DNA of 63,886 nt, the filler included, from an uncultured bacterium (GTDB lineage Bacteria > DAOPZR01), in NCBI GenBank assembly GCA_964637655.1. It is 3 parts of 3 records of this genome, joined end to end, with 100 filler letters (N's around TTAATTAATTAA, not from the genome) between each part and the next. Parts side by side here need not be neighbours in the genome. Positions count along the whole stretch, not along the records: positions 25,359 to 50,528 come from CAZWUZ010000020.1; 2 more parts are not named here. One strand, 5' to 3'. This document shows, piece after piece, positions 1,701 through 50,628 of the stretch. Each line of letters begins with the position of its first letter. Positions within the stretch are counted from its first letter, which is position 1. The notes beneath the pieces were generated by a model, which was not told where the DNA came from, did no database searches, and worked only from the letters and a program-made list of their open reading frames with translations. A program made the position numbers and the translations under genes.

Positions 1701-3263
1701 CTATAGTACTCGCCCGGGGCAGGCACACACACGTATTCCGTCATACGCGAGAATGCCGTTGACCCAGACCGCACGCACGCCGGTGGGGGTCTGTTCAGGT
1801 TCTGCATAGGTCGCGCGCGGGGCGAAGCGCGGCAGGTCGAGCAGCACCAGGTCAGCAACCGCACCGACGGCGATATGCCCGCGGTCATGCAGCCCGAACC
1901 GTTCCGCGCCCTGCGTGCTCATCTTCCACAGCGCTTCACCCGCGGTCAATCCGTCGCGACCGCGCGTGACAGCGCGGAAGTACGCGGGCATGGTGCCGAA
2001 CGCGCGCGGGTGCATCCCCTTGCCGAACAATCCGTCGCTGCCGGGCACCGCCAGCGGCTCGCGGCAGAGTCGCGCCACGCGCCGCTCGTCCATCGAGAAC
2101 ATCAGCATTCCCGCCTGCCCCTGCTCGTCGGCAATAACGCGGCAGAGTGCACTCACCACGTCGGTATGCAGCCGTCGCGCGCCTTCCGCGATGCTGCGCC
2201 CCGCCAGGCGGCGATGCACGCGCAGGTTGGTCAGCCGGATGCGGTCCGTACCGATAGTCCGCAGAAAATTTTCCCAGTCAGTTGCCGGTTGCGCCAGTTC
2301 CTCACGCAGTCGTGCCACCACCTGCGGGTCGCGCAGCCGCGCGCAGAGCGCCGCCGGGCCGCCCGCCTGCACCCACGGCGGCAACAGCGCATTAGCAGTC
2401 GTACTCCCCGCCGCGTACGGACTGATGTCGAACCCGACATCCTGCCCGCGGCGGCGCGCGGCGCGCACCACGCGCGCGAGAGTATCGTACTTATGCCAGT
2501 TGGCACGCCCATACGCCTTGAGATGCGATAGTTCCACGCGCAGCGGCAGGCCGCGCGTCAGCGCCAGCACGCGCTGCACACTCTCCACCGTCTGGTTGCC
2601 TTCGTCCCACCCGTGCACCGCCAGTACCCGCCCGGGAAACTCCGCCAGCACCCGCAACGCGGCACGCAGTTCCGTCTCGTCAGCGTAACTGCACGGGGGA
2701 TAGATCATGCCGAGCGACAGCCCGCGTGTCCCCAGCGCCAGTTCCGTGCGCAACTGCCGCGCCAGCGCGCGGCGTTCCGCTGCTGTCAGCGGACGCGACG
2801 CGTTGCCGGCAGCATACAGGCGCAACGTGCCATACGTGGATAGCGGCGCGAGATTGACCGGCGTCCGTCCCGTCACAGCACGTGCATAGCCGGACAGCGT
2901 CCGCCACGTCACCGCCCCGTCACCGAATACCCCGCGATACCCCTGCAGATAGGCACGCGCGGCCGCAGTGCTGCGGAACGGAAATACCCCGAGCCCGCAA
3001 TTGCCGGTAATCTCCGTCGTGATTCCCTGCGCGATTTTGGCCAGGGCGCGCTTGCCGCGCAGGAGATACAATTCGCTGTGGGTATGGGCGTCGATGAACC
3101 CGGGGGAAAGGGTCAACCCGCGCCCGTCGATGACCCGGCGGGCGGGCGGGGCAGACAATGCCGTGCCAAGATACGCGATGCGCTTGCCGCGCACCCCGAC
3201 CGACAGACGGCGGAGATTCTTCTCCTGCAGGCAATTCACGTTATCAATGCGGAAATCAAGCAT
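1701..3263 (-). CDS. N-acyl-D-amino-acid deacylase (amidohydrolase 3 family)
   Basis: PGFIDAHTHS, QGITTEITGNCG, LSHLK, GSDG, HPRAFGT and RGHIAVGAVADLV motifs. Confidence 0.85.
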   Translation of the reverse strand: MLDFRIDNVNCLQEKNLRRLSVGVRGKRIAYLGTALSAPPARRVIDGRGLTLSPGFIDAHTHSELYLLRGKRALAKIAQGITTEITGNCGLGVFPFRSTAAARAYLQGYRGVFGDGAVTWRTLSGYARAVTGRTPVNLAPLSTYGTLRLYAAGNASRPLTAAERRALARQLRTELALGTRGLSLGMIYPPCSYADETELRAALRVLAEFPGRVLAVHGWDEGNQTVESVQRVLALTRGLPLRVELSHLKAYGRANWHKYDTLARVVRAARRRGQDVGFDISPYAAGSTTANALLPPWVQAGGPAALCARLRDPQVVARLREELAQPATDWENFLRTIGTDRIRLTNLRVHRRLAGRSIAEGARRLHTDVVSALCRVIADEQGQAGMLMFSMDERRVARLCREPLAVPGSDGLFGKGMHPRAFGTMPAYFRAVTRGRDGLTAGEALWKMSTQGAERFGLHDRGHIAVGAVADLVLLDLPRFAPRATYAEPEQTPTGVRAVWVNGILAYDGIRVCACPGRVL

Positions 3264-3356
3264 GGACAGACAGTAGCATACTCAAGGGCAAAAGCAAAAA
3301 GCGGCGGGAAAAGCGCCAAAATGAAAGTTTGTCAATTTGTCAACACCCGTCTCCGG

Positions 3357-4412
3357 CTATTTCAGCAGCGCGGTCACCTTGCGGATGATGCCGTTGAGGG
3401 GAACCTGATGGTCGACCACCTGTTCCTTCGCCGCGATACCGGGCATGCCGTAGACGACACTCGTCTCCTGGTCCTGCCCCACGGTCACTCCGCCCGCCGC
3501 GCGCAACTCCTTCAGTCCGTCCACGCCGTCGCGTCCCATGCCGGTCATAATGACACCGATTGCCTTGCGCCCGTAGACCTGGGTCACGGAACGGAACAGC
3601 ACCGTCGCCGACGGGCGATGCCCGTCCACCTTGTCAGTCACCGAGAGCACCGTGCGCACCTGCGTGCCGCTGCGTGTCACCAGCAGGTGACGGTCTCCCG
3701 GCGCAATGTACACATGGTTGGGCAGCACCGGTTCGCCGTCCTTTGCCTCCGTCACCGTCAGTTTCGTCAGCCGGTTGAGCCGCTCGGCAAACGCCCCGGT
3801 GAACTCCTTCGGCATGTGCTGCACAATCAGCAGCGGCGGGAACTGTTCCGGCAGTTCCGGGAAAATCTGCGCCAGCGCCGCCGGGCCGCCGGTGGAAATG
3901 CCGAGCGCCACCGCCGCCCCCGTGAGCGCCCCCGCGGCGGGCGCGGCGACAACCGGCGGTACCGCCGCCGGCCGCGGGGCATACAGCCGGGCGAGGCGCG
4001 CCCCGAGATTCTGCTGACGGATGGCCTTGACCTTGGCGCAGAGTTCCTCGCCCATGCCGCGGATGCCCTGCGGACCCTCGACCAGCGGCTTGGGAAAATA
4101 GTCGACCGCGCCCGCCTCAAGGCATTTGAAGGTCAGGTCGGCACCCGCCTGGGTCAGCCCCGAAAGCATGATGACCGGCCGCGGGGACTCCGTCATGATT
4201 TTTTTCAACGCCGTGAAGCCGTCCATCACCGGCATATCGACATCGAGAGTGACAACGTCAGGGTTCAGTTCGGCGATGCGCGCGAGCGCCAGCTGCCCGT
4301 TGGGCGCGGTGCCGACGACCTCGATGCCCGCATCGGCATTCAGGACATCGCTGATGATCTTGCGCAGCAGGGCGGAGTCGTCGACGACGAGGACACGGAT
4401 CTTCCCGTTCAC
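3357..4412 (-). CDS. cheB: Chemotaxis methylesterase CheB (REC + esterase)
   Basis: VLVVDDS REC domain; GISTGGP, VQHMP and MTGMGRDG catalytic motifs. Confidence 0.97.
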   Translation of the reverse strand: MNGKIRVLVVDDSALLRKIISDVLNADAGIEVVGTAPNGQLALARIAELNPDVVTLDVDMPVMDGFTALKKIMTESPRPVIMLSGLTQAGADLTFKCLEAGAVDYFPKPLVEGPQGIRGMGEELCAKVKAIRQQNLGARLARLYAPRPAAVPPVVAAPAAGALTGAAVALGISTGGPAALAQIFPELPEQFPPLLIVQHMPKEFTGAFAERLNRLTKLTVTEAKDGEPVLPNHVYIAPGDRHLLVTRSGTQVRTVLSVTDKVDGHRPSATVLFRSVTQVYGRKAIGVIMTGMGRDGVDGLKELRAAGGVTVGQDQETSVVYGMPGIAAKEQVVDHQVPLNGIIRKVTALLK

Positions 4413-4888
4413 AGGGTCACCGTTTCCTTCCCCATCACCGTCACCGTCATCTGCCCGGTGGCGGGGTCGAAGAGCATCTTCCGCCCGCTGTTACCGCCGC
4501 AATGCTCCGCGCGCAACGGGATGTTCGCCGCCCGGAGCAGTTCCTTCACCCTCGCCACGTTGCGGTTGCCGATGTCAAGCAGCGTCTCGTTGGCCGGCTT
4601 GAGTTTGAACATCGCCGCGCCACCCGCGATTTTCGCCAGCAGCGCGCCGCGCGACGCGCCCTTGCGCTGCAGCTGCTCGATGAGCGCGGGAAGCGCCGTG
4701 TCGGCGAATTTGCCGGGGAGCGGCGGGGCGGGCAGGTCACTGGCCGGGAGCATGATGTGCGCGAGCGCAGCAAGGTGCGCATTCGGGTCGAAGAGCACCA
4801 GCCCGACACAGGAGCCGAGGATGGTCTGCAGCTGGTCGGGCGGCGCGGCGACCTTGAGGTCGCCCATGCCGACGTTCAGCGTCGCCAT
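4409..4888 (-). CDS. cheD: Chemoreceptor glutamine deamidase CheD
   Basis: LGSCVG, AHIMLP, KIAGGAAMF and IGNRN motifs. Confidence 0.95.
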   Translation of the reverse strand: MATLNVGMGDLKVAAPPDQLQTILGSCVGLVLFDPNAHLAALAHIMLPASDLPAPPLPGKFADTALPALIEQLQRKGASRGALLAKIAGGAAMFKLKPANETLLDIGNRNVARVKELLRAANIPLRAEHCGGNSGRKMLFDPATGQMTVTVMGKETVTL

Positions 4889-4889
4889 C

Positions 4890-5747
4890 TCATTCCGTCC
4901 GCTGGTAGATGGAGGGTTTCAGGGTGCGGTACTTCAAATTGAGTCCCATCATCCCCTCGGCTGCGCCGAGCAGCAGGTAGCCGTCCGGCACCAGCGCGTC
5001 ATACAGGTTGGTCAGCACCTGCTTTTTGCTCGTCTCATCGAAGTAGATGAGCACGTTGCGGCAGAAGATGATGTCGTATTTCTGCCCCGTCACCTTCTGC
5101 ATCAGGTTGTGCGTGCGGAACTGCACCATGGCGCGGATGGCCGGCGCGAGGTGATACTCCTCCTGCACCGACGCCGCATGGTCGATCACCGCGCGTCCCC
5201 TGCCGTCCACCTGCCGCACGGTGAAATACTTCTTCACCAGCGCCGGGTCGGTGCGGCTCACCGCGTAAGGGCGGTAGACCGCCGCCTTCGCCCGCGCCAG
5301 CACTTCGCTGTTGATGTCGCTGGCGTGGATGGTCGCGTGCCAGCCGGCCGGCAGGCGCTCCTTGAGGAACATGGCGATGGTATACGGTTCTTCGCCCGTC
5401 GAGCAGGCCGCACTCCAGACCTTGAGCGATTTGGTTTTCGCGTTGCGCGCCAGGAGCGCGGGGAGCATGTCGCTGTGGAAGTATTCCCACTGGCGGGGCT
5501 CGCGGAAGCAGTAGGTCTCGTTGGTGGTGATGGCGTCGATGCACGTGACGAGTTCGCCGTTGTTCTTCACCACGTAGTCGTAGTAGGCGCGGTAGGTGGG
5601 GAGGTTGAGGTCGCGCAGCCGCGTGCGCAGGCGGTTGGCGACCAGCGACATCTTGCTCTCCTTGAGGAAGATGCCCGTCCGCTGGTACATCAGTTCCTTG
5701 AACAGGGTGAATTCGGCTGCCGACAGCACCGGCGCGTCGGTCAGCAT
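4890..5747 (-). CDS. cheR: Chemotaxis methyltransferase CheR
   Basis: TTNETY.FRE, WSAACSTGEEPY and DIIFCRNVLIYF motifs; start placed at ATG 5747 to avoid overlapping the MCP. Confidence 0.96.
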   Translation of the reverse strand: MLTDAPVLSAAEFTLFKELMYQRTGIFLKESKMSLVANRLRTRLRDLNLPTYRAYYDYVVKNNGELVTCIDAITTNETYCFREPRQWEYFHSDMLPALLARNAKTKSLKVWSAACSTGEEPYTIAMFLKERLPAGWHATIHASDINSEVLARAKAAVYRPYAVSRTDPALVKKYFTVRQVDGRGRAVIDHAASVQEEYHLAPAIRAMVQFRTHNLMQKVTGQKYDIIFCRNVLIYFDETSKKQVLTNLYDALVPDGYLLLGAAEGMMGLNLKYRTLKPSIYQRTE

Positions 5748-5754
5748 GCGCTGC

Positions 5755-7644
5755 TCACTTTCCGCGCAGCAGCGGCTTGCACTCAATAAGCAGCCGCACC
5801 ACGTCCTGCGACACGCGATGGAACTCCCCGTGCAGCAGTTCCTGCTTCGCCGCGTCCATGCGCCCCGCCTTGATCAGGTCGATAATGCTTCCCACCGTGG
5901 CGTGGAAGTGCCGGTGTTCGGTGACCAGCCGGTCGAAGACAGGATTCCCCTTGAGCCGCTCGCCGTCCGTGCCGAACATCCACTTGCCGAGGTCGCAGGC
6001 ATGGTCGACCGACGCCGCTGCCCGGTCCGGAAGTTCACCGCCGTTGGCAGCGTTGAACAGGCGGGTTTTCCAGCGCAGGTGCGCCGCCACGCCCTTATCG
6101 ATGACCGTCGGCTCCCCCACGGTAAACATCGTCGTCAGGGAGAGCATCAGGTCGGCTTCACCCGCCAGCGCACGGGTCTGCCCGGCAATGGTAGTGGCCG
6201 CACCGGCGTTTTCCTCCGTCACTGACGCGCTGCTCTGGATGGCCTTGGCCACCTCGTCAGCGGTGTTCGCCTGCTCTTCCGCCGCCTGCGAAATCTGCGC
6301 CACTGCCCCCGCGGTCTTGTTGACCTCGCTGATGATGCTGCCGAGCACCGTTCCCGCCTGCTCGGCAAGTTTCGCCCCCTCATGCGCCTTGCCTGAACTT
6401 TCACCAATCAGTTTGGCGGTTTCGCGCGCCGCCTGCGCCGAGCGTTCGGCCAGTTTGCGTACCTCGTCGGCGACCACGGCAAACCCCATACCATGCTCGC
6501 CTGCCCGCGCCGCCTCGATGGCGGCATTGAGCGCCAGCAGGTTGGTCTGGTCGGCGATTTCGCTGATGGTGGCGACGATCTCGGTCACCTGCTCGGAACT
6601 GCGCGCAATCTGTTTCGTCGCCTCGATCGAGGCATGCACCGCGCGGTCACCTTCGGCGGCAATACCCGAGGCGGTCTCCGCCACCCCCTGCACCTGCCCG
6701 GCGCTGCGCGCCACTTCGGCAATCGAGGAATTGAGTTCCTCCACCGACGCGGAGAGTTCTTCCATGGTCGACGCCTGGTTCTGCGCCCCCTGCGCCACGT
6801 TCCCTGTGCCGGCAAGAATTTCCCCCGCCCCGTCCTGAATCATCTGTGCGCCCGCACGGTACTGCCCGATAAGCGTTTCGAGATTGTCACACAGGTGGTT
6901 GATGCCTGCCGCAAGCAGTCCGATTTCACCGCTGCCGGCCGGCGCGCGCACGGTCAGGTTGCCTTCCGCCACCTGCTGCAGGCAGGTCACCGCCCCCTGC
7001 AGCGGCTGCGTCACCTGCCGGCGCACAAAGAGCGCGGCCAGCAGCAGGATGAGCGCGCCCAGCAGCACCACCACCGCGGTAAGCAGCAACACCTGATGGT
7101 TGGCGGCGGTGGCCACATCATCGAGGTAGACCCCGGTACCGACCACCCAGTCCCACGGGGCAAAACGCGCAACATAGGATACTTTCGGCACCGGGTTTTC
7201 ACCCGCAGCACGCGGCCAGCGGTAGGCAACCACCCCGCTGCCGTCCGCTTTACAGACACGCACGAATTCGCGGAAGTAGTAGACCCCGTCCTCGTCCGCG
7301 GTGCTGCTCATGTCCTTGCCGACGAGGTCGGGACGGGCGGGATGCTCGACCAGGCGGCACTGCATGTCGTTCACCCAGAGATAATTGCCCCCGCCATAAC
7401 GCATGGCCCGCAGCACCGCCCGCGCCTGCACCTGCGCCGCTTCGCGGGTCAGTTCCCCCGCCTGCTCGCGCGCGTGCACTTCCTGCAGCATCCCGAGCGC
7501 GGCGTCGACCATGGCGCGGCACTGCGCCTCACGCTCAACCCGCAGCGAACTGCGGGTGGCCGTTGCTACGGTCGCAACAACCGCCAGCAGCAGGCAGAGC
7601 AATCCCGCCCCGATGCCGAGCATAAGTTTCTTCTGTAAGGTCAC
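5755..7644 (-). CDS. Methyl-accepting chemotaxis protein: single Cache sensor, HAMP, signalling domain, C-terminal CZB zinc-binding domain
   Basis: Two TM helices around [13 protein letters not shown]...[28 protein letters not shown] hairpin tip; HLRWK...CDLGKW...HRHFH. Confidence 0.93.
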
Positions 7645-7674
7645 GATGCCGTCTCCGTTCGTGTCAGTTCCGCG

Positions 7675-8163
7675 TCACAGCGCGGCGATGCGGTCCTGTT
7701 CCTGCGCCGAGAGAATCCGGTCGAGGTCGAGCAGGATGAGCAGGCGACCCTGCACCTTGCCCACCCCCTGCAGGTACTCATGGCCGATGCCCGCGACCAC
7801 CGGGGGCGGCGGTTCGATCTGCTCCTCGGCGAGGCGCATGACTTCGCTCACCCCGTCGACGACCACCCCCATGACGCGGCTGGCCACGTTGACCACGACG
7901 ATGCGCGTCTGTCCCGTATGCTCGGCGCTGCCCAGCGCGAAGCGCTTGCGCAGGTCGATGACCGGGATGACATTGCCGCGCAGATTGATGACCCCCTCGA
8001 TGAAGTCGGGCATCTGCGGGACGCGCGTGACCTCCTGGTAGCGGATGATCTCCTGCACGCGCATGATGTCGACCCCGTACTCCTCCTGCCCGAGCGTAAA
8101 GGTGACCAGCTGGCGCAGGCGGGCACTGTCGCTTTCCGTGCCGTGTTTGTGTGCGGTTGCCAT
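7675..8163 (-). CDS. cheW: CheW
   Basis: EEYGVDIMRVQEII and GVINLRGNVIPVIDLR motifs. Confidence 0.96.
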   Translation of the reverse strand: MATAHKHGTESDSARLRQLVTFTLGQEEYGVDIMRVQEIIRYQEVTRVPQMPDFIEGVINLRGNVIPVIDLRKRFALGSAEHTGQTRIVVVNVASRVMGVVVDGVSEVMRLAEEQIEPPPPVVAGIGHEYLQGVGKVQGRLLILLDLDRILSAQEQDRIAAL

Positions 8164-8173
8164 GCTCTCCTCC

Positions 8174-9712
8174 TCAGACCTTGAAGTGCTCGACGAGTTT
8201 GCGCAGCGTCTCCGCCTGCGAGGCCAGTTCCTCCGAGGCGCTCGCCATCTGCTCCGCCGTGCCCGCGTTCTCCTCGGTGATGCTGCTGACGTTCTGCACC
8301 GCCTTGGCGACCTCGTCCGCCGTCGCCGTCTGTTCCTCGGTCGCCGACGAGATCTGCGCGATGGCGCCCGCGGTCTTCTCGACGCTGCCGACGATCTGCG
8401 TCAGTCCCGTCCCTGCCTGCTCGGCGAGTTTCGTCCCCTCCTGCACCTTCCCCGTGCTGTCCTTGATCAGCCCGGTGATCTCACGTGCCGCCTGCGACGA
8501 GCGCTCGGCAAGCTTGCGCACCTCGTCAGCCACCACGGCAAAGCCCATGCCATGCTCGCCCGCACGCGCCGCCTCGATGGCGGCATTGAGCGCCAGCAGG
8601 TTGGTCTGGTCGGCAATCTCGCTGATGGTGCCGATGATCTCGGCGATCTGCTCGGAACTGCGCGCGATCTGCTTGGTCGCCTCGACGGAACTGCCCACCG
8701 CGCGGCCGCCGTCATCCGCCTGCCGTGAGGTCTCCTCGGCCAGGGTGTTGGCATTCTGCGCGCTCTTAGCCACATCGGCGATGGACGATGTCAGTTCCTC
8801 GACCGACGCGCTGATTTCCTCGACCGTCGAGGCCTGGTTCTGTGCCCCCTGCGACACGCTCTGCGCGTTGGAGGAGAGTTCCTCTGACGACGCGGCGATC
8901 TGCTCCGCCGCCGCGCGCACGTTGCTGATGACCTTGGAGACGTCCTCGACCATCCTGTTGAGCGTCTGTGCCACTTCCCCGAACTCGTCCCGCGTGGCGA
9001 CATTGACCCGCTCGGTCATGTTGCCGCCGGCAACGCTCACCGCCGCGCGCTGCACTTCGGTCAGCACCGCCACGATGCTGCGCACGATCCACAATCCGAT
9101 GCCCAGGGCAATAAAGAAACCGACGATCGCCAGCACCACCATCGTGGTTCCCTGCCGTACAGTCGCCGTGTTGTTTTCCTCCGCCATTTCCTCGACATCC
9201 TTGGCCAGTGCCTCCGACAGAGCTTCAAGTGCATTGTTATAGGCAAGCGCCGCCTCTCTCCCCTCACCGTCGATCAGCGCCCACCCTTCCTCGTCCCGGT
9301 TCTGCTGCGCCATCTCTATCAACTTGTTCTGACTGTCAATAAACCGTTCCCGGGCGGCCATAAACACTTCCCATTGCGCCTTGTTGTCGGCATGGAACGC
9401 CCCCTCCTCGAACATCGGCGCGAGTACCTTGACGTTTTCCCTGATATCATCGCGATACTTCATCATGCGATCGATATTTCCTTTGATTTCATCCGCCGCA
9501 TTATGCCGTAACGCGTCCCGCAGTTCGACCCGGACACGGTTGAACGCCTGGGCAATCGACCCCAGGTTCTCGATTGGCACCACCCCGTACGCGTACATGT
9601 TCGCACCGTCGGATCCAGACTCGCGCAACCCGAGGAAACCGTACGTTCCGATTGCCAGCGCAATCAGCGCCACGAGGATGAACCCGCCCAGCAATTTCGT
9701 CCTGACTTTCAT
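8174..9712 (-). CDS. Methyl-accepting chemotaxis protein with four-helix-bundle sensor
   Basis: [11 protein letters not shown]1, helical periplasmic domain, HAMP (DEFGEVA), signalling hairpin. Confidence 0.94.
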
Positions 9713-25258: not shown

Positions 25259-25358
25259 NNNNNNNNNNNNNNNNNNNNNNNNNNNNNNNNNNNNNNNNNN
25301 NNTTAATTAATTAANNNNNNNNNNNNNNNNNNNNNNNNNNNNNNNNNNNNNNNNNNNN
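25259..25358. other. Artificial contig linker
   Basis: 44 N + TTAATTAATTAA (stops in all six frames) + 44 N. Confidence 0.98.
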
Positions 25359-32176: not shown

Positions 32177-32539
32177 ATGGCTGTCGACGACAAACCGCTG
32201 CTCCGTCCGCACCTGGTTATCCGCGAGGAGAGCGATGCCTGCGCGCTGCTGCATGACCCTGACCGCCGGCTCAGTTTCGTCCTCAATCCTGTCGGTCTCT
32301 GCCTCTGCCGCGCGCTCAACGGGAAGCGCACCCCGGCCGAGCTCGCCGCCGTCGTCCGCCGCACCTTCCGCACCGTCCCCGCCATCCTCGACGATGACCT
32401 CCGTTTCTTTCTCGACCAGCTGCTGCTGCATAACCTTGCCACCGGCGGCCGGCCGCGCTACCTGCGCCGCCGGGGCCGGCGCCTCGTCCTGACCGCGGCC
32501 GGGCGTGCCGCACAGCAGCGCGCCCGCGCAAACGCATGA
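32177..32539 (+). CDS. scmD: PqqD-family RiPP recognition element (SynChlorMet ScmD-like)
   Basis: VIREE.D..ALL.DPD...LNPVG...LNGKRT pattern; AGGAGG RBS; coupled to a radical SAM gene. Confidence 0.8.
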   Translation: MAVDDKPLLRPHLVIREESDACALLHDPDRRLSFVLNPVGLCLCRALNGKRTPAELAAVVRRTFRTVPAILDDDLRFFLDQLLLHNLATGGRPRYLRRRGRRLVLTAAGRAAQQRARANA

Positions 32540-33684
32540 CCCGACGCGCTGTCCGGCACCGGCCCGTCGCCACCGGCACCGGCCGGCACCGGCGCGCGTG
32601 GCCGCTGCGCCAGGTCTACTGCTACCTGACCGCCGGCTGCAACCTGCGCTGCCGCCACTGCTGGCTCGCCCCCGTGCACGAACCTGACCCGGCGGCCCTG
32701 CAGCAGCCCGTGCTCGACCTCACTCTCTGCAACGATGTCATCCGCCAGGCAATACCGCTCGGCTGCACCACCGTCAAACTCACCGGCGGCGAGCCGCTCA
32801 TGCATCCACACATCGGCCGTATCCTCGCCACGCTCCGCCGCGAACAGCTGGCGCTGACGCTGGAGACCAACGGCACGCTACTCGATGCCCCGCTTGCCCG
32901 CGCCATCGCGCGCTGCCGGACGCCGCATGTCGCGATCAGCATCGATGCGAGCGACGCGCGCACCCACGACCGGGTGCGCGGCGTGCCGGGCAGTTTCGCC
33001 CGCGCCCGCGCCGGCCTCCGCCATCTCGTCGCTGCCGGTATCCGCCCGCAGCTCATCTGCTCCGTGCTGCGCTGCACGCGGTCGCATCTCGCACGCATCG
33101 TGCGCTGGGCGGAGCGCCACGGGGTCGGGTCGGTGAAGTTCAACGTTATTCAGCCGGCGGAACGCGGGCGCGCGCTGCACACGGCCGGAGCCGTGCCCGG
33201 CATCCGCGCGCTCGTCGCCACCGGTGCGTGGATGGAGCAGCACCTCATCCCGCAATCGCGCATTCCCGTCTTCTTTCATCACCCCGCCGCCTTCCGCCCG
33301 CTCGGGCGCATGTTCAACGACGGCGGCAATTGCAGCACCTGCGGCATTCACAGCATTATCGGGGTGCTCAGCAGCGGCCACTACGCGCTCTGCGGGGTCG
33401 GCGCCACGGTGCCGGATCTCATCTTCGGCGATGCGCGCACGCAATCGCTGCGCACGGTATGGCGGCAGCATCCCGTGCTCAACCGCCTGCGCCGCGACCT
33501 CCCCGCGAAACTCGAGGGCATCTGCGCCCGCTGCGTCATGCGTGTGGTCTGTCTCGGCAGCTGCGTCGCGCAGAACTACTACACCACCCGCTCCCTCTTC
33601 GCCCCCTTCTGGTACTGCGACGCGGCCGCCGCGGCGGGGCTCTTCCCCGCAAGCCGTCTCCTGCCGGCGGCGAAACCGCGATGA
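32536..33684 (+). CDS. scmF: Radical SAM/SPASM peptide maturase (ScmF-like)
   Basis: YLTAGCNLRCRHCWLAP; GGEP; SPASM cysteines CSTCGI..LC..CARC....CLGSC..YC. Confidence 0.82.
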   Translation: MTRRAVRHRPVATGTGRHRRAWPLRQVYCYLTAGCNLRCRHCWLAPVHEPDPAALQQPVLDLTLCNDVIRQAIPLGCTTVKLTGGEPLMHPHIGRILATLRREQLALTLETNGTLLDAPLARAIARCRTPHVAISIDASDARTHDRVRGVPGSFARARAGLRHLVAAGIRPQLICSVLRCTRSHLARIVRWAERHGVGSVKFNVIQPAERGRALHTAGAVPGIRALVATGAWMEQHLIPQSRIPVFFHHPAAFRPLGRMFNDGGNCSTCGIHSIIGVLSSGHYALCGVGATVPDLIFGDARTQSLRTVWRQHPVLNRLRRDLPAKLEGICARCVMRVVCLGSCVAQNYYTTRSLFAPFWYCDAAAAAGLFPASRLLPAAKPR

Positions 33685-34868
33685 ACACCGTCATGCGCAC
33701 GCCACGCACTGTCGATATCGCCCTCACCGGCAGATGCAACCTGCGTTGCCGCTACTGCAGCCACTTTTCCAGCGCCGGCGAGGTGCGCGACCTCCCTGTC
33801 CGCTCGTGGCTCGCCTTCTGCCGTGAACTGAAAGAGAACGCCGTGCTCAGCGCCTGTCTGCAGGGCGGCGAACCGCTGCTCTACCCGGGTTTCCGCGCCG
33901 TCGTCCGCGGGCTGGTCGACGCCAATATGCGCTTTTCCGTGCTTTCCAACGGGACGCTCATCACCGACCCGCTCGCGCGATTTCTTTCCGGAACCGGGCG
34001 CTGCGATTACGTGCAGGTCTCGCTCGATGCCGCCGCGCCTGCCGGACATGACTTCGCGCGCGGCAGGGGTAGTTTCGCCCGCGCGCTGCGCGGGTATGCC
34101 CGCCTGCGCGGGCAGGGGGTCAGCGTCACCGTGCGGGTCACCATCCACCGCGGCAACGTGCACCAGCTGCCGGAGATCGCGCGCTTTTTGCTTGAAGATT
34201 TGGGGCTTGACAGTTTCGGCACCAACAGCGCCAGCCATCTCGGGCTCTGCCGCAGCAACGCGGCAATGGTGCAGTTGACCGCAACTGAGCGGTCGCTGGC
34301 CATGCGCCTCCTCCTCGACCTCGACCGGCAGTATCCCGGGCGCATCAGCGCGCAGGCGGGTCCGCTTGCCGAAGCGCGACGCTGGCAGCAGGTGCAGCTG
34401 GCGCAGGCGCGCGGGGAACGTTCGCTCCCCGGCGGTGGCTTTCTCACCGGCTGCGGCGGGATGTGGGAAAAGATCGCGGTGCGCGCCGACGGCATGCTCG
34501 TTCCCTGCCTGATGCTCCCCCACCTCGAACTGGGGCGCATCAACCGCGTGTCGTTGCGCGAGGTCTGGCAGCAGCATCCCGTCTACCGCGCGCTGCGCCG
34601 CCGCCACCGTATCCCGCTGACAAAGTTCCGTGCATGCCGCACCTGCACCTGGCGCAATTTCTGCACCGGCAACTGCCCGGGCATCGCTGCGACCATGCTC
34701 GGCGCTGTCGACCGTCCCAGTCCCGACGCCTGTCTGCAGCGCTTTCTTGCCGACGGTGGCGAACTGCCGGTGCTGCCGCCGGCGACACGCACCCGTCGTG
34801 GACCTGATGCATCATCCCCGAAATGTATTGTCGGGGATCCAGTAATTCGTCATCCCCGAGTTTCGTAA
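33681..34868 (+). CDS. scmE: Radical SAM/SPASM peptide maturase (ScmE-like)
   Basis: MRTPRTVDIALTGRCNLRCRYCSHF; GCGG..PC..CRTC....CTGNCP..DAC; ATG 33681 overlaps the upstream stop. Confidence 0.82.
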   Translation: MNTVMRTPRTVDIALTGRCNLRCRYCSHFSSAGEVRDLPVRSWLAFCRELKENAVLSACLQGGEPLLYPGFRAVVRGLVDANMRFSVLSNGTLITDPLARFLSGTGRCDYVQVSLDAAAPAGHDFARGRGSFARALRGYARLRGQGVSVTVRVTIHRGNVHQLPEIARFLLEDLGLDSFGTNSASHLGLCRSNAAMVQLTATERSLAMRLLLDLDRQYPGRISAQAGPLAEARRWQQVQLAQARGERSLPGGGFLTGCGGMWEKIAVRADGMLVPCLMLPHLELGRINRVSLREVWQQHPVYRALRRRHRIPLTKFRACRTCTWRNFCTGNCPGIAATMLGAVDRPSPDACLQRFLADGGELPVLPPATRTRRGPDASSPKCIVGDPVIRHPRVS

Positions 34869-34880
34869 TCGGGGATCCAG
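34811..34880. repeat. Two tandem REP-like palindromes
   Basis: tcatccccga-N8-9-tcggggatccag at 34811-34842 and 34849-34880. Confidence 0.75.
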
Positions 34881-34902
34881 ATAACATGCCCCGGAGGAAA
34901 CA

Positions 34903-35175
34903 ATGACCAGAGAGAACAGGAGCGGTAAACCGGAGTAGCAGGCCCCGAAACTCGCGGCGCTTAACGATGGTGAACTTGCCCGTGTTTCCGGCGGTACCGT
35001 AACCGGGGATTGCAAAATCGGCATGAGTCCCGGCGGCATCTGTCAGGCAGGCCAGTACCCGGCTGTCCCGCCGGGCCCCTGCGCCAGCGGCGGTACCGCT
35101 GCCCAGGGCATCTGTACCAGCGGCGGGCGGCCGGAACTCGGTTGTTCGACCGGCAGCCAGCCGAATTTTTCCTGA
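34903..35175 (+). pseudogene. Cys/Gly-rich RiPP precursor (five CxxG) with in-frame TAG at codon 12; disrupted or read through
   Basis: Hand translation MTRENRSGKPE*QAPKLAALNDGELARVSGG-TVTGDCKIGMSPGGICQAGQYPAVPPGPCASGGTAAQGICTSGGRPELGCSTGSQPNFS; GGAGG RBS at 34893-34897. Confidence 0.8.
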
Positions 35176-35196
35176 CGCACCGCCAGGCCGGCAGGT

Positions 35197-35457
35197 TCAG
35201 CGCAGCGCGAGTATCTGGTACCCGTGCTGCGCGACCGCTGCCGCGTCCCAGAATTGCACATCCTTCGTCTTCAGCACGTAGGTGATCTCCTTCGTGATGC
35301 TCCGGCCGGTGTACGCCTGCTTTTCCTGGTCCCATTCGCGCAGCAGCAGCGTGTCACCCGCAGCGCAGGCGAAATCCGCCAGCCGCAGCTCGAAGTTCTT
35401 CTCCCCCGAAAGTATTTTTTCGAAGTAGCACGACAACACCTTCTTTTCTATCTGCAT
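35197..35457 (-). CDS. DUF3850 / ASCH-like small protein
   Basis: YFEKILSGEKNFELR..GDTLLLREWD..YTGR pattern; GGAGG RBS. Confidence 0.8.
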   Translation of the reverse strand: MQIEKKVLSCYFEKILSGEKNFELRLADFACAAGDTLLLREWDQEKQAYTGRSITKEITYVLKTKDVQFWDAAAVAQHGYQILALR

Positions 35458-35534
35458 GCTGATCCTCCGGCACTCCCTTGCGGGTGCGCGTCGTTGCCTG
35501 CCCCGCCCCCTCACTGCGCTGGTGTCGATACCGC

Positions 35535-36941
35535 TCAGAAATCGAGCGGGCAGGGTCGTGGGGGAATGATATCATGCTCCGCGAGAAACACACGGTCGTC
35601 GGCGCTGAGCCCGCTGCTGACCACCGCCGCCATTTCAAATTCCCGGCAACGCAGGCGGCAGATATCCGCTGACGGGACAAAGGGCGAGCCGCTGGCGCTG
35701 ACGTTCTCATACTTGCAGCCGCCGGCGCAGTGATAACGGGCGAAACACGCGGCGCAGGCGGGAACAAACGTTGCCGGACTTCTGCCATACTGTTCCCGCG
35801 CAAGTTCACCGTCGAAAACATTTCCCAGTTTATACCCGTCCTGCCCGACAAAACGATGGCACAGGTAGACGTCACCGGTGCAGGAGACCCCGACCATTTC
35901 CCGCCCCGCGCCGCAGGCGTGGTACTGCCGCTTCTGCTGCACCAGGGCGGTCACCGCGGTGCGCAGCAACCCGGTGGCCTTGAGTTTCCTGAGGGCATCG
36001 CTGTCCCGGTTCCTGATGAGCGTCCCCCAGAGCGCGGCCTCTTCGGCAAAATGCCTGAAGAGTGCCGTCATGTCCCGCGGGGGCAGGGCGGTGCCCGCGC
36101 CGGGGTGCAGCGGAACCGAGGACGGGACGATGGTGATCGCTCTGAACCCGATATCCTGCATGGCCTCCCTGATGCGACGCGGATCGTTCGTCCCGGTCAA
36201 AACCGCGTGACCGCCCGTCTCCGGCAGTACCGTCAGCAGTTTCCGCAGTCCCGGCACGATCGCTGCATACGAACCGCTGCCGTCAGCAAACGGGCGCTGT
36301 GCATCCTGCACGTCACGCGGGCCGTCAAAACTCACCGTCACCCTGACCGCATGCTCCGCGAGGAACGCGATGCTGTCGTCGCTCAGCAGGGTCCCGTTCG
36401 TGGTTGCGTGGAATTCGATTTCCTTGCCCGTCTCCCGCGCTCTCCGGGTGGCATAGGCAACCACCGTGCGCAGCAGGGGGAAATTCAGGAACGGTTCACC
36501 GCCGAAGAACCCGAGGCGGATTCTTTTCATCCTGCCGGACTGTTCAATCAGCCAGTCCACCGTACGCCGGGCGGTCTGTTCTGTCATGACGCCGCCGGTT
36601 CCGTACCCGCCGCCGTCACCGTAGCAGTACACGCAGCACAGGTTGCACGACTGCGTCAGAAACAGCGCGACATTTGTCACCGGGGGGGCCGGCACTTGTT
36701 TCCCTGCCGCAGCCTGCGCCGGTGCTGCCTCGGCCAGCAGGCCTAGTCGGGCAAGTTGTCCGGTCCGGCTGGCATCTAGCGTGATGCCGGGTTCATCGGC
36801 CAGCCGCGCCAGCAACCGGGCGAGATCATCATCGATGACCGCGGCCCGCATATCACCGATGTTGATAACGTAGTTCCGGTCGTCATGCCGGAACTGATGC
36901 CAGGGTTTGCGGTGCACGCTACCGGTCCCGCCCCGCGACAT
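35535..36941 (-). CDS. Radical SAM/SPASM maturase with probable N-terminal RRE (Nif11-peptide associated, CteB/PapB-like)
   Basis: CNLCCVYC; FFGGEP; TTNG; CGAG..VYLCHRF..CAACFARYHCAGGC..C; lies directly downstream of the Nif11 precursor. Confidence 0.88.
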   Translation of the reverse strand: MSRGGTGSVHRKPWHQFRHDDRNYVINIGDMRAAVIDDDLARLLARLADEPGITLDASRTGQLARLGLLAEAAPAQAAAGKQVPAPPVTNVALFLTQSCNLCCVYCYGDGGGYGTGGVMTEQTARRTVDWLIEQSGRMKRIRLGFFGGEPFLNFPLLRTVVAYATRRARETGKEIEFHATTNGTLLSDDSIAFLAEHAVRVTVSFDGPRDVQDAQRPFADGSGSYAAIVPGLRKLLTVLPETGGHAVLTGTNDPRRIREAMQDIGFRAITIVPSSVPLHPGAGTALPPRDMTALFRHFAEEAALWGTLIRNRDSDALRKLKATGLLRTAVTALVQQKRQYHACGAGREMVGVSCTGDVYLCHRFVGQDGYKLGNVFDGELAREQYGRSPATFVPACAACFARYHCAGGCKYENVSASGSPFVPSADICRLRCREFEMAAVVSSGLSADDRVFLAEHDIIPPRPCPLDF

Positions 36942-36955
36942 GCATTGCTGGCCGG

Positions 36956-37213
36956 TCAGTAATTCATGCTGTGGCATTCCCCGAAGTCGAGCAGGCCGCA
37001 ACAGGGTATGGTAAAACCGCCGGCGATCTTTTCCAGTTCCTCCTCCGGCAGTTGTGCGCGCAGTTGCCTGACTTCCTCCGGGGTAAAATCGAAACCCTCC
37101 GCTTTGGCCATGGCCAGACGTTCCGCCTCGTTGGTGCAGGCCCCGACTTTCTTCGTGAAAGTTTCATCCGTCTTCAATCGCTCGATAAACGCCTTTGCCG
37201 ATTCGATGCTCAT
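36956..37213 (-). CDS. Nif11-like leader RiPP precursor, core FTIPCCGLLDFGECHSMNY
   Basis: MSIESAKAFIERLKTD...AKAEGFDFT.EE...EEELEKIAGG leader; AGGAGG RBS. Confidence 0.92.
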   Translation of the reverse strand: MSIESAKAFIERLKTDETFTKKVGACTNEAERLAMAKAEGFDFTPEEVRQLRAQLPEEELEKIAGGFTIPCCGLLDFGECHSMNY

Positions 37214-37495
37214 GGCATCCTCCTGGGTGCAGCTCTCCACCGTTTGTCCGCTCTGCACCGCACCTGCTCAGTGCATTGCTCATCGCCATCGTATCACCTG
37301 CAACCACCGCCGTCAAAGAAAACAGCCATCAGGGTCGTGTGAACGTTCCCGGGTACAGTGAACAACGCGCCCCGCACAGAAACATACACCGGCAGCGGCA
37401 TACAGTGCCGGTGCTGCCGGCCGCTCTGACGGGGGGATTCCGCGCTCATGCCTTCATCTTGACCGCATACCTACGTCAATATACAGTGCCTGATT

Positions 37496-38434
37496 ATGCT
37501 GACACCGCCTGACAGCTCCGTCCCGGCCGCGGTCGCGCCCGCGCCGGAACGCTTCACCTACCAGCACCTCAGGCCGGACGAACTCGAGCCGTTCCGCGCC
37601 TTCACCTACACCGCCTTCATCGAGGCAGCGGGAAAAAAACCGGATGCCGTTGTTGCGATCGGCGCCTTCCTCTATGGCCTGTTCCCGGCCGGGCTCGCGC
37701 TCGGGACGGTGCGCGCCCGCAAGCAGACACTCGTCGGCGAAATCCTTTCCCTGTGCGTTTCGCCCGACTGCCGCGCCGCGGGGGTCGAACGTGAACTTTT
37801 AGCACTGGTCGAGGTGGCCTTTCGCGCACGCGCCTGCAGTAAACTGCTATTCGTTTACGCCGTTGAAACGCACGGCCACCTCGCCGCTGTCCTTACCGCC
37901 GGCGGCTGGACCCCGCCCGCGCCGCGCTTCGCCCTGCATACCATGTCGCTCGACCGCATGCTCACGGGCAATCCGCTCCTCACGCGCGATATCCTGCCGG
38001 CCGGGTTTACCTATTTCCCGCTGGCTGAACTCGACGCCAATGATAGTGATGGCTTCATGGCCGGACCTGGCGCCGACGAGCGGCCGTCCGAGGTGTTTTT
38101 CAATCCGTACCGGTCGCTGGCAACACTTGAACCGGCAGTCAGCGTTGGCGCGCGTTGCGGAAATGAGCTTGCCGGCTGGGTCATCGCCACCCGGTCCCGG
38201 CCCGACCTTATCGCTTACACCGGCCTGTTCGTCCGCCGCCCGTGGCGCCACACCCCGCTCGCCGCCGCCCTCATGGGCGAGGCGCTGCGCCGCCAGCAGC
38301 AGGCCGGAGTGCCGCGGCTCTCCTGTATGATCCGCCATGATACTACGGCGATGCAAACCATGTTCCGCCGCCGGTTCGCCCATTCCGTCCTGACCACCCG
38401 CCACAGCGTGTGTTCAGAAAAAGATTGCTCGTAG
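37496..38434 (+). CDS. Tandem GNAT-fold acyltransferase
   Basis: EILSLCVSPDCRAAGV and YTGLFVRRPWRHT motif-A-like segments. Confidence 0.75.
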   Translation: MLTPPDSSVPAAVAPAPERFTYQHLRPDELEPFRAFTYTAFIEAAGKKPDAVVAIGAFLYGLFPAGLALGTVRARKQTLVGEILSLCVSPDCRAAGVERELLALVEVAFRARACSKLLFVYAVETHGHLAAVLTAGGWTPPAPRFALHTMSLDRMLTGNPLLTRDILPAGFTYFPLAELDANDSDGFMAGPGADERPSEVFFNPYRSLATLEPAVSVGARCGNELAGWVIATRSRPDLIAYTGLFVRRPWRHTPLAAALMGEALRRQQQAGVPRLSCMIRHDTTAMQTMFRRRFAHSVLTTRHSVCSEKDCS

Positions 38435-38664: not shown

Positions 38665-38911
38665 TTAGCTAGGAACCTTCCCCCCCTCAGACCAACATAA
38701 CTCACACAACCACCCACCTGCCACATGCTCCAAGTCACTGTCCGTCAACTGCTGTGACGACAATTTGAATTCTTCCGCAGTAAAATCGAAGCCCTCCGCC
38801 CTGGCGAATGCCAGGCGCGCCGCCGCATCCTTGCAGGGCCACTACGTTCTTCGCGAAACCCTCATCCGTCTTCAGTCGCTCGATACACGCCTTTGCCGAT
38901 TCAATGCTCAT
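38665..38911 (-). pseudogene. Second Nif11-like precursor with +1 frameshift; restored core WLCELCWSEGGKVPS
   Basis: Removing one base at 38836-38838 gives MSIESAKACIERLKTDEGFAKNVVACKDAAARLAFARAEGFDFTAEEFKLSSQQLTDSDLEHVAGG-core; span is 247 nt (3n+1); AAGGAGG RBS. Confidence 0.85.
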
Positions 38912-39206: not shown

Positions 39207-39390
39207 GCAACTTTACGCGCGCATCGTATTGATTAGCGGCATGTTATCAATCCTTTGGTATTGTTCTGGTTCAATATCGGGCCATCGATATTCAGACAAG
39301 ACTGTCAGAATATCCCGGGAATTAGTCACCTGGTTTGCCCTTGACTAATTCCGCCAAATGCGTCATAATAAGGTAGCGGAGGGTGTGAAT

Positions 39391-40623
39391 ATGACAGACA
39401 ATAGATATCGGGCGAGATCGCTGGCGGGGGCGGTGGCGGATGCGCTCAAGGCATTCCCCGTGGTCATCGTCAGCGGCATGCGCCAGACCGGCAAGACCAC
39501 CATGTTGCGGCGGGATCCGCTGTTCCGCCGGCGGCACTATATCACCCTTGACGATTTCGCTTCCCTGTCCGCCGCGCAGAACAATCCCGAAGCGCTGGTC
39601 GGCGGAACGAAACCCATAACCATTGACGAGGTGCAGCGGTTACCGGAACTGCTCACCGCGATCAAGGCCACGGTCGACCGTGATCGCCGCCCCGGTCGCT
39701 TTCTGCTATCCGGTTCCGCTAATCTCGCCCTGGCCTTCCGTGCGGCGGAAACACTGGCCGGGCGGGCAGTCACCCTGGAACTGACCGGACTGACACGCCG
39801 GGAACTGCACGGTGCCATCGGCAAACGACCGGTCCTGGTCGATCTGCTCGAAGGCAGAAATCCTGCTGGCATTGCCTGGGATGGTTCCGCGGTGCACGCT
39901 GCTGAAGTGTCGGCTGGCGGCCTGCCGGAGGTCACGCTCGGCCACCCGCAGCGCGCGCGCTGGTTTGACGGTTTTATCGCCACCTATCTCGAACGCGATC
40001 TGCGTTCCTACGCCCAGGTCGGCGACCTCATCTCCTTCCGGATCCTGATGAAAATGGCAGCATTGCGCACAGGCAATATTCTTAATGAAACTGAGCTGGC
40101 TCGTGATGCGCGCCTGACCGTCAAAACCACCGGCCGCTACCTCGGCCTGATGGAAGCGGGCTATATCCTCCGCCGCCTGCCGCCATTCCTGCGTAATCGA
40201 ACCACGCGCCTGATGAAAACGCCGAAGATATTCTGCAGCGATTCCGGGCTGGCAGCGGTATTGGCCGGAGCGGCCGGTTTTGCGGATGCGCCGGACGATC
40301 CGCTGCGCGGGGCTCTGCTCGAAACCTATGTGCTGCAGAACCTGATGGGGAATGTCGCCGGCGAATCGCCCGCCATCACGCCGCATTATTGGAATGTCAG
40401 CGGCCGCCACGAAGTCGACTTTGTCTTCGAGTGCGGCAGGCGGGCGATTGCGGTCGAAGTGAAGTGGGCCTCACGCTGGAATGAACACGACCTGTCTGGC
40501 CTGCGCGCCTGGCAGGAAACGACGCCCGGTGGCGGACTGGCGCTACTGGCCTGCCAGACCCGCACTGCAACACAACTGGGAGAGAATCTCTGGGTGGTAC
40601 CGCTCGGCGATTTGCTACGCTGA
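39391..40623 (+). CDS. AAA_14 ATPase with DUF4143 (PD-(D/E)xK-like) C-terminus
   Basis: GMRQTGKTT, IDEVQ, LAGR, KTPK...DSGL and EVDFV..AVEVK motifs; promoter TTGACT-17-CATAAT at 39341-39369. Confidence 0.9.
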   Translation: MTDNRYRARSLAGAVADALKAFPVVIVSGMRQTGKTTMLRRDPLFRRRHYITLDDFASLSAAQNNPEALVGGTKPITIDEVQRLPELLTAIKATVDRDRRPGRFLLSGSANLALAFRAAETLAGRAVTLELTGLTRRELHGAIGKRPVLVDLLEGRNPAGIAWDGSAVHAAEVSAGGLPEVTLGHPQRARWFDGFIATYLERDLRSYAQVGDLISFRILMKMAALRTGNILNETELARDARLTVKTTGRYLGLMEAGYILRRLPPFLRNRTTRLMKTPKIFCSDSGLAAVLAGAAGFADAPDDPLRGALLETYVLQNLMGNVAGESPAITPHYWNVSGRHEVDFVFECGRRAIAVEVKWASRWNEHDLSGLRAWQETTPGGGLALLACQTRTATQLGENLWVVPLGDLLR

Positions 40624-40781
40624 ATTTGGTGCGATCCCGCCCGCCGACACCTATGGTCGTGCCGCGATCTCGCCCGGGTTTCATCGCCAGTCCCCCTCCA
40701 GATCATTTGTAATGAATTTTGTGCTTTATTCCTTACAAAAATCATAGTATGGGGAATGTAGCCACAGTTCCTTTCAAAAAC

Positions 40782-40809
40782 AAAAGCCAGACATAACTGT
40801 CTGGCTTTT
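40782..40809. terminator. Bidirectional intrinsic terminator between the ATPase gene and the tRNA
   Basis: aaaagccagaca-taac-tgtctggctttt. Confidence 0.8.
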
Positions 40810-40821
40810 CGTGACTTGGTA

Positions 40822-40898
<77 letters not shown>

Positions 40899-50528: not shown

Positions 50529-50628
50529 NNNNNNNNNNNNNNNNNNNNNNNNNNNNNNNNNNNNNNNNNNNNTTAATTAATTAANNNNNNNNNNNNNNNN
50601 NNNNNNNNNNNNNNNNNNNNNNNNNNNN
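50529..50628. other. Artificial contig linker
   Basis: 44 N + TTAATTAATTAA + 44 N. Confidence 0.98.

Follow-up and report, generated by a model that had tools for sequence, protein, structure and literature searches.

The window analysed here, a stretch of 63,886 nt from the genome of an uncultured bacterium, holds three genes of the SynChlorMet (SCM) type, scmD-scmF-scmE, and directly behind them a short frame broken by a stop codon. Two questions are raised by this locus: whether the frame encodes the peptide substrate of the cassette, and what the stop stands for. The reading preferred here, with a probability of roughly 80%, is that the frame is the ScmA-type precursor of a reduced cassette, scmD-scmF-scmE-scmA, that carries a recent single-base nonsense change from Tyr to TAG. 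The region belongs to contig C20 of the genome (G000), an assembly of 3.99 Mb in 485 contigs with 90.55% completeness, whose phylum is represented by two genomes (G000 and G001). Runs of N at 25259-25358 and 50529-50628 of the window join separate contigs with no known linkage across them.

The original prediction had described a GGAGG ribosome-binding site, an ATG at 34903 and a 90-codon frame with TAG at codon 12, and the sequence confirms each of these elements. The Shine-Dalgarno GGAGG (34893..34897, plus strand) lies 5 nt 5' of the ATG (34903-34905), codon 12 is TAG (34936-34938) and a TGA (35173-35175) closes the interrupted scmA-type gene (34903..35175, plus strand), which is located 35 nt 3' of scmE on the same strand. 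Read through, the leader of the window peptide consists of a YxxPxL RRE-binding motif, with the TAG at its Tyr (34936..34938, plus strand), running into a full double-glycine motif (34960..34995, plus strand) with L20 at -12, L25 at -7, V28 at -4 and GG at -2/-1. The predicted core of 59 residues (34996..35172, plus strand) contains five CxxG units at residues 37, 47, 60, 71 and 81, spaced by 10, 13, 11 and 10 residues, and here too the description given earlier, five spaced units in a 59-residue core after GG, was correct. The only later in-frame ATG is codon 41, and a start there would omit the leader.

Five CxxG within 50 residues were found in 3 of the 42,766 stop-to-stop segments of the six frames of G000, the precursor being the sole regularly spaced one. 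When the genome was searched with a profile made from 33 precursors of cassettes elsewhere (window sequence excluded), the precursor frame was the top match (E 3.5e-5), followed by a match at 0.36. This clustering and this rank indicate that the frame is more than a product of chance. A single homologue was found among three candidates, the intact orthologue P0001, which has 90 residues, is 76% identical, carries Tyr12 and keeps all five CxxG units; 21 of the 22 differences between both peptides, including the TAG, are explicable by one base change. An ScmE orthologue (P0003, 89% identical) comes from the source of P0001, and the longest contig is 2300 nt for either protein; for this reason both are probably encoded on one contig. 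A search of JGI metagenomes for close relatives of the peptide gave 114 pattern matches, none of them confirmed. In the two genomes of the phylum, the peptide search matched only G000, and G001 was also blank with the family profile.

Upstream of the precursor, scmD (32177..32539, plus strand) encodes a divergent stand-alone, PqqD-like RRE, its start at 32177 being preferred to 32150 because of a GGAGG upstream. ScmD fails the TIGR04248 cut-off (50.6 bits, cut-off 100), passes that of Pfam PqqD (PF05402, 26.3 bits, cut-off 23.4) and can be aligned with 32 ScmD-like proteins. The genes scmF (32536..33684, plus strand; TIGR04251, 471.1 bits, cut-off 400) and scmE (33681..34868, plus strand; TIGR04250, 513.1 bits, cut-off 400) are intact and encode radical SAM/SPASM enzymes. 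The CxxxCxxC motif is kept in both, and seven SPASM cysteines are invariant in 58 of 58 ScmE and 36 of 36 ScmF homologues, with an eighth in 72% of the latter. The window enzymes retain all those cysteines, and depart from highly conserved columns at 8 (ScmE) and 5 (ScmF) positions against a median of 2. In the set of 126 locus-gene pairs inspected for scmE/scmF decay, five were clearly broken and one was ambiguous. The predicted ScmE model has a mean pLDDT of 66.6 and values below 50 for 313-356, so it is unreliable in the SPASM part. A PDB sequence search found distant enzymes only, the best being SkfB (E 1e-25), which matched in the radical SAM domain only.

The gene order D-F-E-A is unusual: scmF before scmE on one strand was found in 0 of the 37 other loci with both enzymes. 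Within the often short flanking DNA of those 37 loci, an HprK-like ScmC was present in 22, an SpI-like peptidase in 16, an ABC exporter in 9 and a nucleotidyltransferase in 3. In G000, no ScmC match was obtained at E 0.01 or by tblastn with five queries, and tblastn at E 1e-4 gave no matches for two SpI, five kinase and two transferase queries. Since the assembly is 90.55% complete, ScmC or SpI, like the pyl genes discussed below, could be unassembled.

A survey of ScmE loci, covering nine genome loci, regions of two more genomes and the best 80 of 467 metagenome loci, has revealed that a small gene with Tyr/Trp-x-x-Pro and CxxG repeats recurs adjoining scmE/scmF. These related CxxG peptides beside homologous cassettes strengthen the view that the frame encodes a RiPP precursor whose leader carries YxxPxL and on which ScmE and ScmF are likely to act. 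The 33-precursor set was chosen by motif from SCM loci, shadow-frame ORFs and near-duplicates being left out; it comprises 32 sequences with Tyr and one with Trp, and its CxxG units most often lie 10 residues apart (62 spacings). At E 0.001, its profile found 2381 clusters. Of the 150 that scored best, 136 have 160 residues or fewer, and all of these carry the motif (132 Tyr, 4 Trp) and 3-10 CxxG units. Tyr or Trp therefore stands at the motif position in 169 of 169 family sequences, a conservation that is partly circular because the motif itself guided the choice of both the set and the profile. P0001 has the complete Y/WxxPxL leader, and in the window its Tyr codon is TAG. A profile-profile comparison (hhalign) of the family with the window/P0001 pair gave a probability of 97.2 (E 2.8e-11), and the 169-sequence profile, used as a membership test for the precursor, gave 36.8 and 43.7 bits. 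Within one phylum, the family profile also matched 28 of 401 genomes.

Neither the window peptide nor P0001 matches the curated ScmA model TIGR04252 (cut-off 35 bits) at E up to 10. The same model gave weak matches with two of five precursors from canonical loci, and the best of them reached 21.8 bits; with 5 of 5 canonical-locus precursors below the cut-off too, TIGR04252 is a narrow model. Judged by its sequence, the peptide is a divergent ScmA-type precursor, that is, a member of the wider family that fails the curated model. Two further arrangements were observed in the family. Locus L040 (G022:C9) has two complete SCM cassettes face to face, and neither shares its precursor, kinase or RRE with the other; G077 has, by the look of the sequences, three precursors on contigs apart from its scmE locus (L034).

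The peptide could also be foreign to ScmE and ScmF, either as an unmodified or disulfide-bonded double-glycine bacteriocin or as a substrate of the neighbouring Nif11-type enzyme. Its full double-glycine leader resembles those of Nif11 peptides, a weak TIGR03949 match was obtained (E 0.3, below cut-off), and the missing TIGR04252 match, the odd gene order and the divergent ScmD point in the same direction. This is nevertheless improbable, given that the gene follows scmE closely on the same strand, that YxxPxL and a 10-residue CxxG period occur as in ScmA-type peptides, and that the Nif11 domain carried by the Nif11 enzyme's own precursors is lacking. The assignment as ScmE/ScmF substrate is consequently retained.

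The neighbouring system is convergent with the cassette (35535..37213, minus strand) and consists of a radical SAM maturase (35535 to about 36941, minus strand; TIGR04064, 587 bits, cut-off 518.7) and a Nif11 precursor with a double-glycine leader (36956-37213, minus strand; TIGR03798, 77 bits, cut-off 32.3). A DUF3850/ASCH-like gene (35197-35514, minus strand) is located between both convergent peptide systems. At a distance of 3.5 kb, a second Nif11 precursor (38665-38911, minus strand), the leader of which ends in a double glycine, contains a one-base frameshift, either an error or the mark of a pseudogene. A Nif11 precursor, a TIGR04064 enzyme and a GNAT gene form paralogous clusters at 35535-38434 of the window and at G000:C31:7249-10159, and the enzymes of both clusters are 56% identical; contig C31 additionally carries a large ORF (2631 codons) that is NRPS-like. 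Close to the right edge of the peptide-gene region, an AAA_14/DUF4143 ATPase gene and a tRNA-Met(CAT) (40822-40898) were found within 39358-40898 of the window, a sequence arrangement that is a possible island boundary.

Just 5' of the precursor and overlapping the scmE end, two copies of a 36-nt repeat with internal symmetry occupy 34807..34880 (no strand assigned), with no further copies in a genome-wide search of G000. In the related contig X5, 39 nt are missing at this repeat (joint 34848-34888), and the C terminus of P0003 is shorter. A promoter and terminator scan of 34700-35600 found nothing.

With regard to the stop, it had been pointed out that TAG is one base from Tyr or Trp codons, and a nonsense mutation, a consensus error and an amber read-through (for example with pyrrolysine) had been offered as explanations. 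Tyr12 of P0001 supports the Tyr origin and the nonsense mutation, and rules out Trp as the original residue. The precursor gene contains no second lesion, and the stop therefore looks recent. Decay is, moreover, an ordinary event in this cassette, to judge from the broken scmE/scmF genes noted above and the stops in other scmA-type genes described below, and the frameshifted Nif11 precursor shows it in the neighbourhood as well.

If the TAG were a consensus error, or if the population were polymorphic and the living gene intact with Tyr12, this would agree with the low depth of the metagenome data (depths 2-8), with the gene being otherwise free of lesions and with the intact state of the nearest relative. 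Among the pieces listed, one of four runs covers the codon without difference; the X1 piece ends at 34930 and that of X4 starts at 34988. The covering piece, contig X2-11 (437 nt, run X2, depth 7.5), was separately assembled, spans 34574-35010 and shows 0 differences, TAG included. This identity means that the TAG is not confined to one assembly, with the qualification that X2 is possibly the source sample of the genome and that contigs drop minor alleles. An error or a polymorphism is accordingly regarded as unlikely, and the nonsense change as the preferred explanation. The X5 contig, from a landfill and another study, can be aligned over 34888-35015 without a gap and differs there at 17 positions, in a stretch for which P0001 needs at least 13 differences, and 8 of 10 ScmE residue changes deduced from 30 listed X5 differences agree with P0003.

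Alternatively, translation might continue across the amber codon by design, either through pyrrolysine or recoding or by way of a selected leak, with a near-cognate tRNA-Tyr inserting Tyr at a low rate and so limiting the output. The proposed search for pyrrolysine genes and a CUA-anticodon tRNA gave nothing above cut-off in G000: the profile scores were 126 for PylB (cut-off 348), 23 for PylS (178) and 35 for PylC (248), and a Methanosarcina control set gave one pass per model. PylS was also below cut-off in G001 and G294. No CUA anticodon was found among the ARAGORN calls, with default settings or -ps90; with -ps80 there were eight CUA calls, all among 7232 noise calls. Of 40 Rfam tRNA matches, 37 had other anticodons and three were partial, none of these showing CUA. 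A release factor RF1 gene, split over two contigs, is present in G000 with its PxT motif. As the original prediction had stated, other genes end in TAG: this codon terminates 501 of the 2198 long ORFs of G000, the GNAT gene at 37496-38434 among them, and the in-frame extensions are alike after TAG, TGA and TAA (medians 44, 42 and 41). With Pyl proteins below cut-off and no CUA tRNA in the 90.55% complete assembly, RF1 present and TAG as a common stop, pyrrolysine and genome recoding were discarded. A read-through hairpin was discarded as well, the RNA after the TAG folding no better than shuffles (z 0.93).

Among 75 further genes of the scmA type, at least two (L053 and L161) were found to carry a premature stop, in both cases a TAG in the leader. 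In L053 (8450-8671) it is at codon 3, where L054 has CAG; in L161 it is at the leader end, with an intact paralogue adjoining. The fact that 3 of 3 interrupted scmA genes, that of the window included, have a leader TAG speaks for a deliberate read-through, as does the intact state of ScmE and ScmF; leader-TAG makes up just 17-18% of the possible single-base nonsense changes, and two out of two corresponds to about 0.03, a post hoc value. On the other side, the three sites differ, the TAG replacing Tyr, Gln and probably Ser, and TAG is a working stop in both G000 and L053. Among the stops that lie in frame within paralogue alignments, TAG is not over-represented (7 TAG, 15 TGA, 7 TAA), in counts that are noisy and dominated by shadow frames. 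In related RRE systems, PMC13381572 describes the first motif residue as critical to binding and required to fill an aromatic pocket. Pyrrolysine would hardly be expected to fill such a pocket. Taken with the results on Pyl machinery and RNA folding, this makes a purposeful read-through very unlikely. The amber is most likely a plain strain-level knock-out and no new decoding rule.

The hybrid leader distinguishes the window peptide from its family; the original prediction had quoted the double-glycine stretch but made no use of it. A strict double-glycine pattern fits the window peptide, P0001 and three Nif11 leaders of G000, and 0 of 169 ScmA-type sequences (three loose matches). V28, L25, L20 and GG, together with a C39 transporter in the genome, place the peptide among those with double-glycine leaders. 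The single C39 domain of G000 (127 bits, cut-off 22) belongs to an NHLP-type transporter, accompanied by HlyD and TolC genes on contig C158, and the transporter gene is truncated by the contig end. These findings suggest that the hybrid leader reflects a swap in processing, from the SpI peptidase to a C39 transporter.

On the same contig, a second, intact ScmA-like gene (G000:C158:3984-4169; L130) encodes 61 residues with YxxPxL, two CxxG units ten apart and a basic tail, and lacks GG. It has a GGAG 5' of its ATG, its stop overlaps the next start, and the genes that follow it in a row are those for GNAT, TolC, NHLP-type HlyD and the C39 transporter. With the larger profile its E value is 0.0008, and three almost identical relatives exist elsewhere; the pattern by which the gene was found also fired once in four control genomes. 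The chances are about even that the enzymes still serve this gene. Upstream of it, a minus-strand gene (G000:C158:578-2233) encodes a PHP-type phosphoesterase fused to an APH-family phosphotransferase domain.

In a scan of 171 loci, a good number of which are not SCM loci, a leader combining YxxP with a GG-type motif was found elsewhere only in L072, in four copies. A Nif11-like enzyme adjoins there (328 bits, cut-off 518.7), and ScmC and SpI are absent within 13 kb. The L072 region at 1860-8318 contains duplicated YxxP plus GG-type precursor pairs, one precursor of which looks frameshifted, the Nif11-like enzyme, a LanC-like gene, an RRE, scmE and scmF. In a quick ScmE tree, L072 was nearest to the window/P0003 pair with an SH-aLRT of 93, under the 95 mark, L072 and P0003 being flagged for composition. 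The sequences suggest that L072 and the window locus belong to a branch of the cassette that has double-glycine leaders and a link with Nif11-type systems. The existence of such a branch, leaving aside any regulatory role of the amber, is slightly favoured. A far-reaching combination of these ideas, in which leader ambers in ScmA-type precursors would be a recurring selected dial (near-cognate read-through, with Tyr here and no pyrrolysine) on a double-glycine SCM branch making five small Cys-Gly rings, exported via the C39 transporter common to Nif11 peptides, is considered extremely improbable.

In this strain, RF1 would end translation after 11 residues, and hence this copy would yield no leader-bearing substrate and the TAG would block its whole pathway. 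In the intact allele, ScmD would very likely bind YxxPxL and present the core to ScmE and ScmF. Both enzymes would then probably abstract hydrogen atoms and close thioether rings at the cysteines. A CxxG unit is defined by its Cys and by the Gly three positions further along; position +6 is Ala or Pro in 75% of the units, and the units of the family profile set show no Asp, Glu, Asn or Thr that is conserved and could serve as acceptor. On these grounds, one small un-nested ring per CxxG, from the Cys sulfur to the C-alpha of the invariant Gly, is favoured tentatively among ring types; other acceptors or non-thioether chemistry would be the alternatives, and the conserved Gly may instead be a turn residue. 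ScmE and ScmF may work as a complex, by analogy with TrnC and TrnD. If ligands are assigned by analogy, seven SPASM ligands over two clusters would leave one iron open; in the thioether enzyme CteB, the open iron site faces the substrate cysteine (PMC8326336). It is rather likely that the leader would be cut after GG (G31) and the core exported by the C39 transporter of C158, replacing the canonical SpI peptidase.

The amber itself is most likely of little import, as the strain-level knock-out of an accessory gene. The SCM cassette matters more, with at least 2298 close ScmE homologues among the 8000 candidates scored, and the 2381 precursor clusters mentioned above. This locus is a minimal version of it, with three proteins and one peptide; its small gene set, an orthologue that is naturally intact and the expectation that an ordinary C39 protease would cut off the leader make it a convenient test case for CxxG chemistry. 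A search of the open literature found no paper on the chemistry of Scm enzymes.

The SCM cassette and the ScmA precursor model are already catalogued in NCBIfam (SynChlorMet; ScmA TIGR04252, ScmC TIGR04249, ScmD TIGR04248, ScmE TIGR04250, ScmF TIGR04251), a point absent from the original prediction, and what differs here is the hybrid leader and the reduced gene set. The likeness consists of ScmE and ScmF over their cut-offs, a PqqD-like RRE and an adjoining precursor with Y/WxxPxL and CxxG repeats. In contrast, no ScmC, SpI peptidase or nucleotidyltransferase was found in G000, the window order is D-F-E-A, and the precursor has a double-glycine leader, misses the ScmA model and carries the stop at codon 12. 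The clusters for linear polyphosphorylated peptides (LPP) and paeninodin-type lassos share a Y/WxxP leader read by a stand-alone RRE (PMC13381572). Canonical SCM loci have in common with LPP the SpI peptidase, an HprK-like kinase, an NTP transferase and an exporter of the MsbA-like kind. The window cassette differs from LPP in having two radical SAM enzymes, LPP tailoring genes are absent nearby, and the main text of PMC13381572 makes no mention of radical SAM.

With respect to the product, the type 2 sactipeptides streptosactin (GggB) and QmpA (QmpB) would offer a possible model by analogy, with serial, un-nested four-residue Cys thioether rings as described in PMC9389541; they involve one enzyme, two rings and streptococci, whereas the window has two enzymes and five units. 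Two radical SAM enzymes per thioether pathway are also found in thuricin CD (TrnC/TrnD, which act as a complex according to PMC12093266) and in ruminococcin C (RumMC1/2), but these have nested hairpin rings and other precursors, without a close sequence match, and RumMC was absent from the 25 best NCBIfam families of ScmE or ScmF. Finally, C39 peptidase-ABC transporters need GG and hydrophobic residues at -4, -7 and -12, Nif11 leaders included, as stated in PMC10885120. The window leader differs from C39/Nif11 leaders in being short, in having an upstream RRE motif and no Nif11 domain, and in the position of the transporter on another contig, but shares with them GG and the hydrophobic residues at -4, -7 and -12, in a genome that encodes an NHLP-type C39 transporter.
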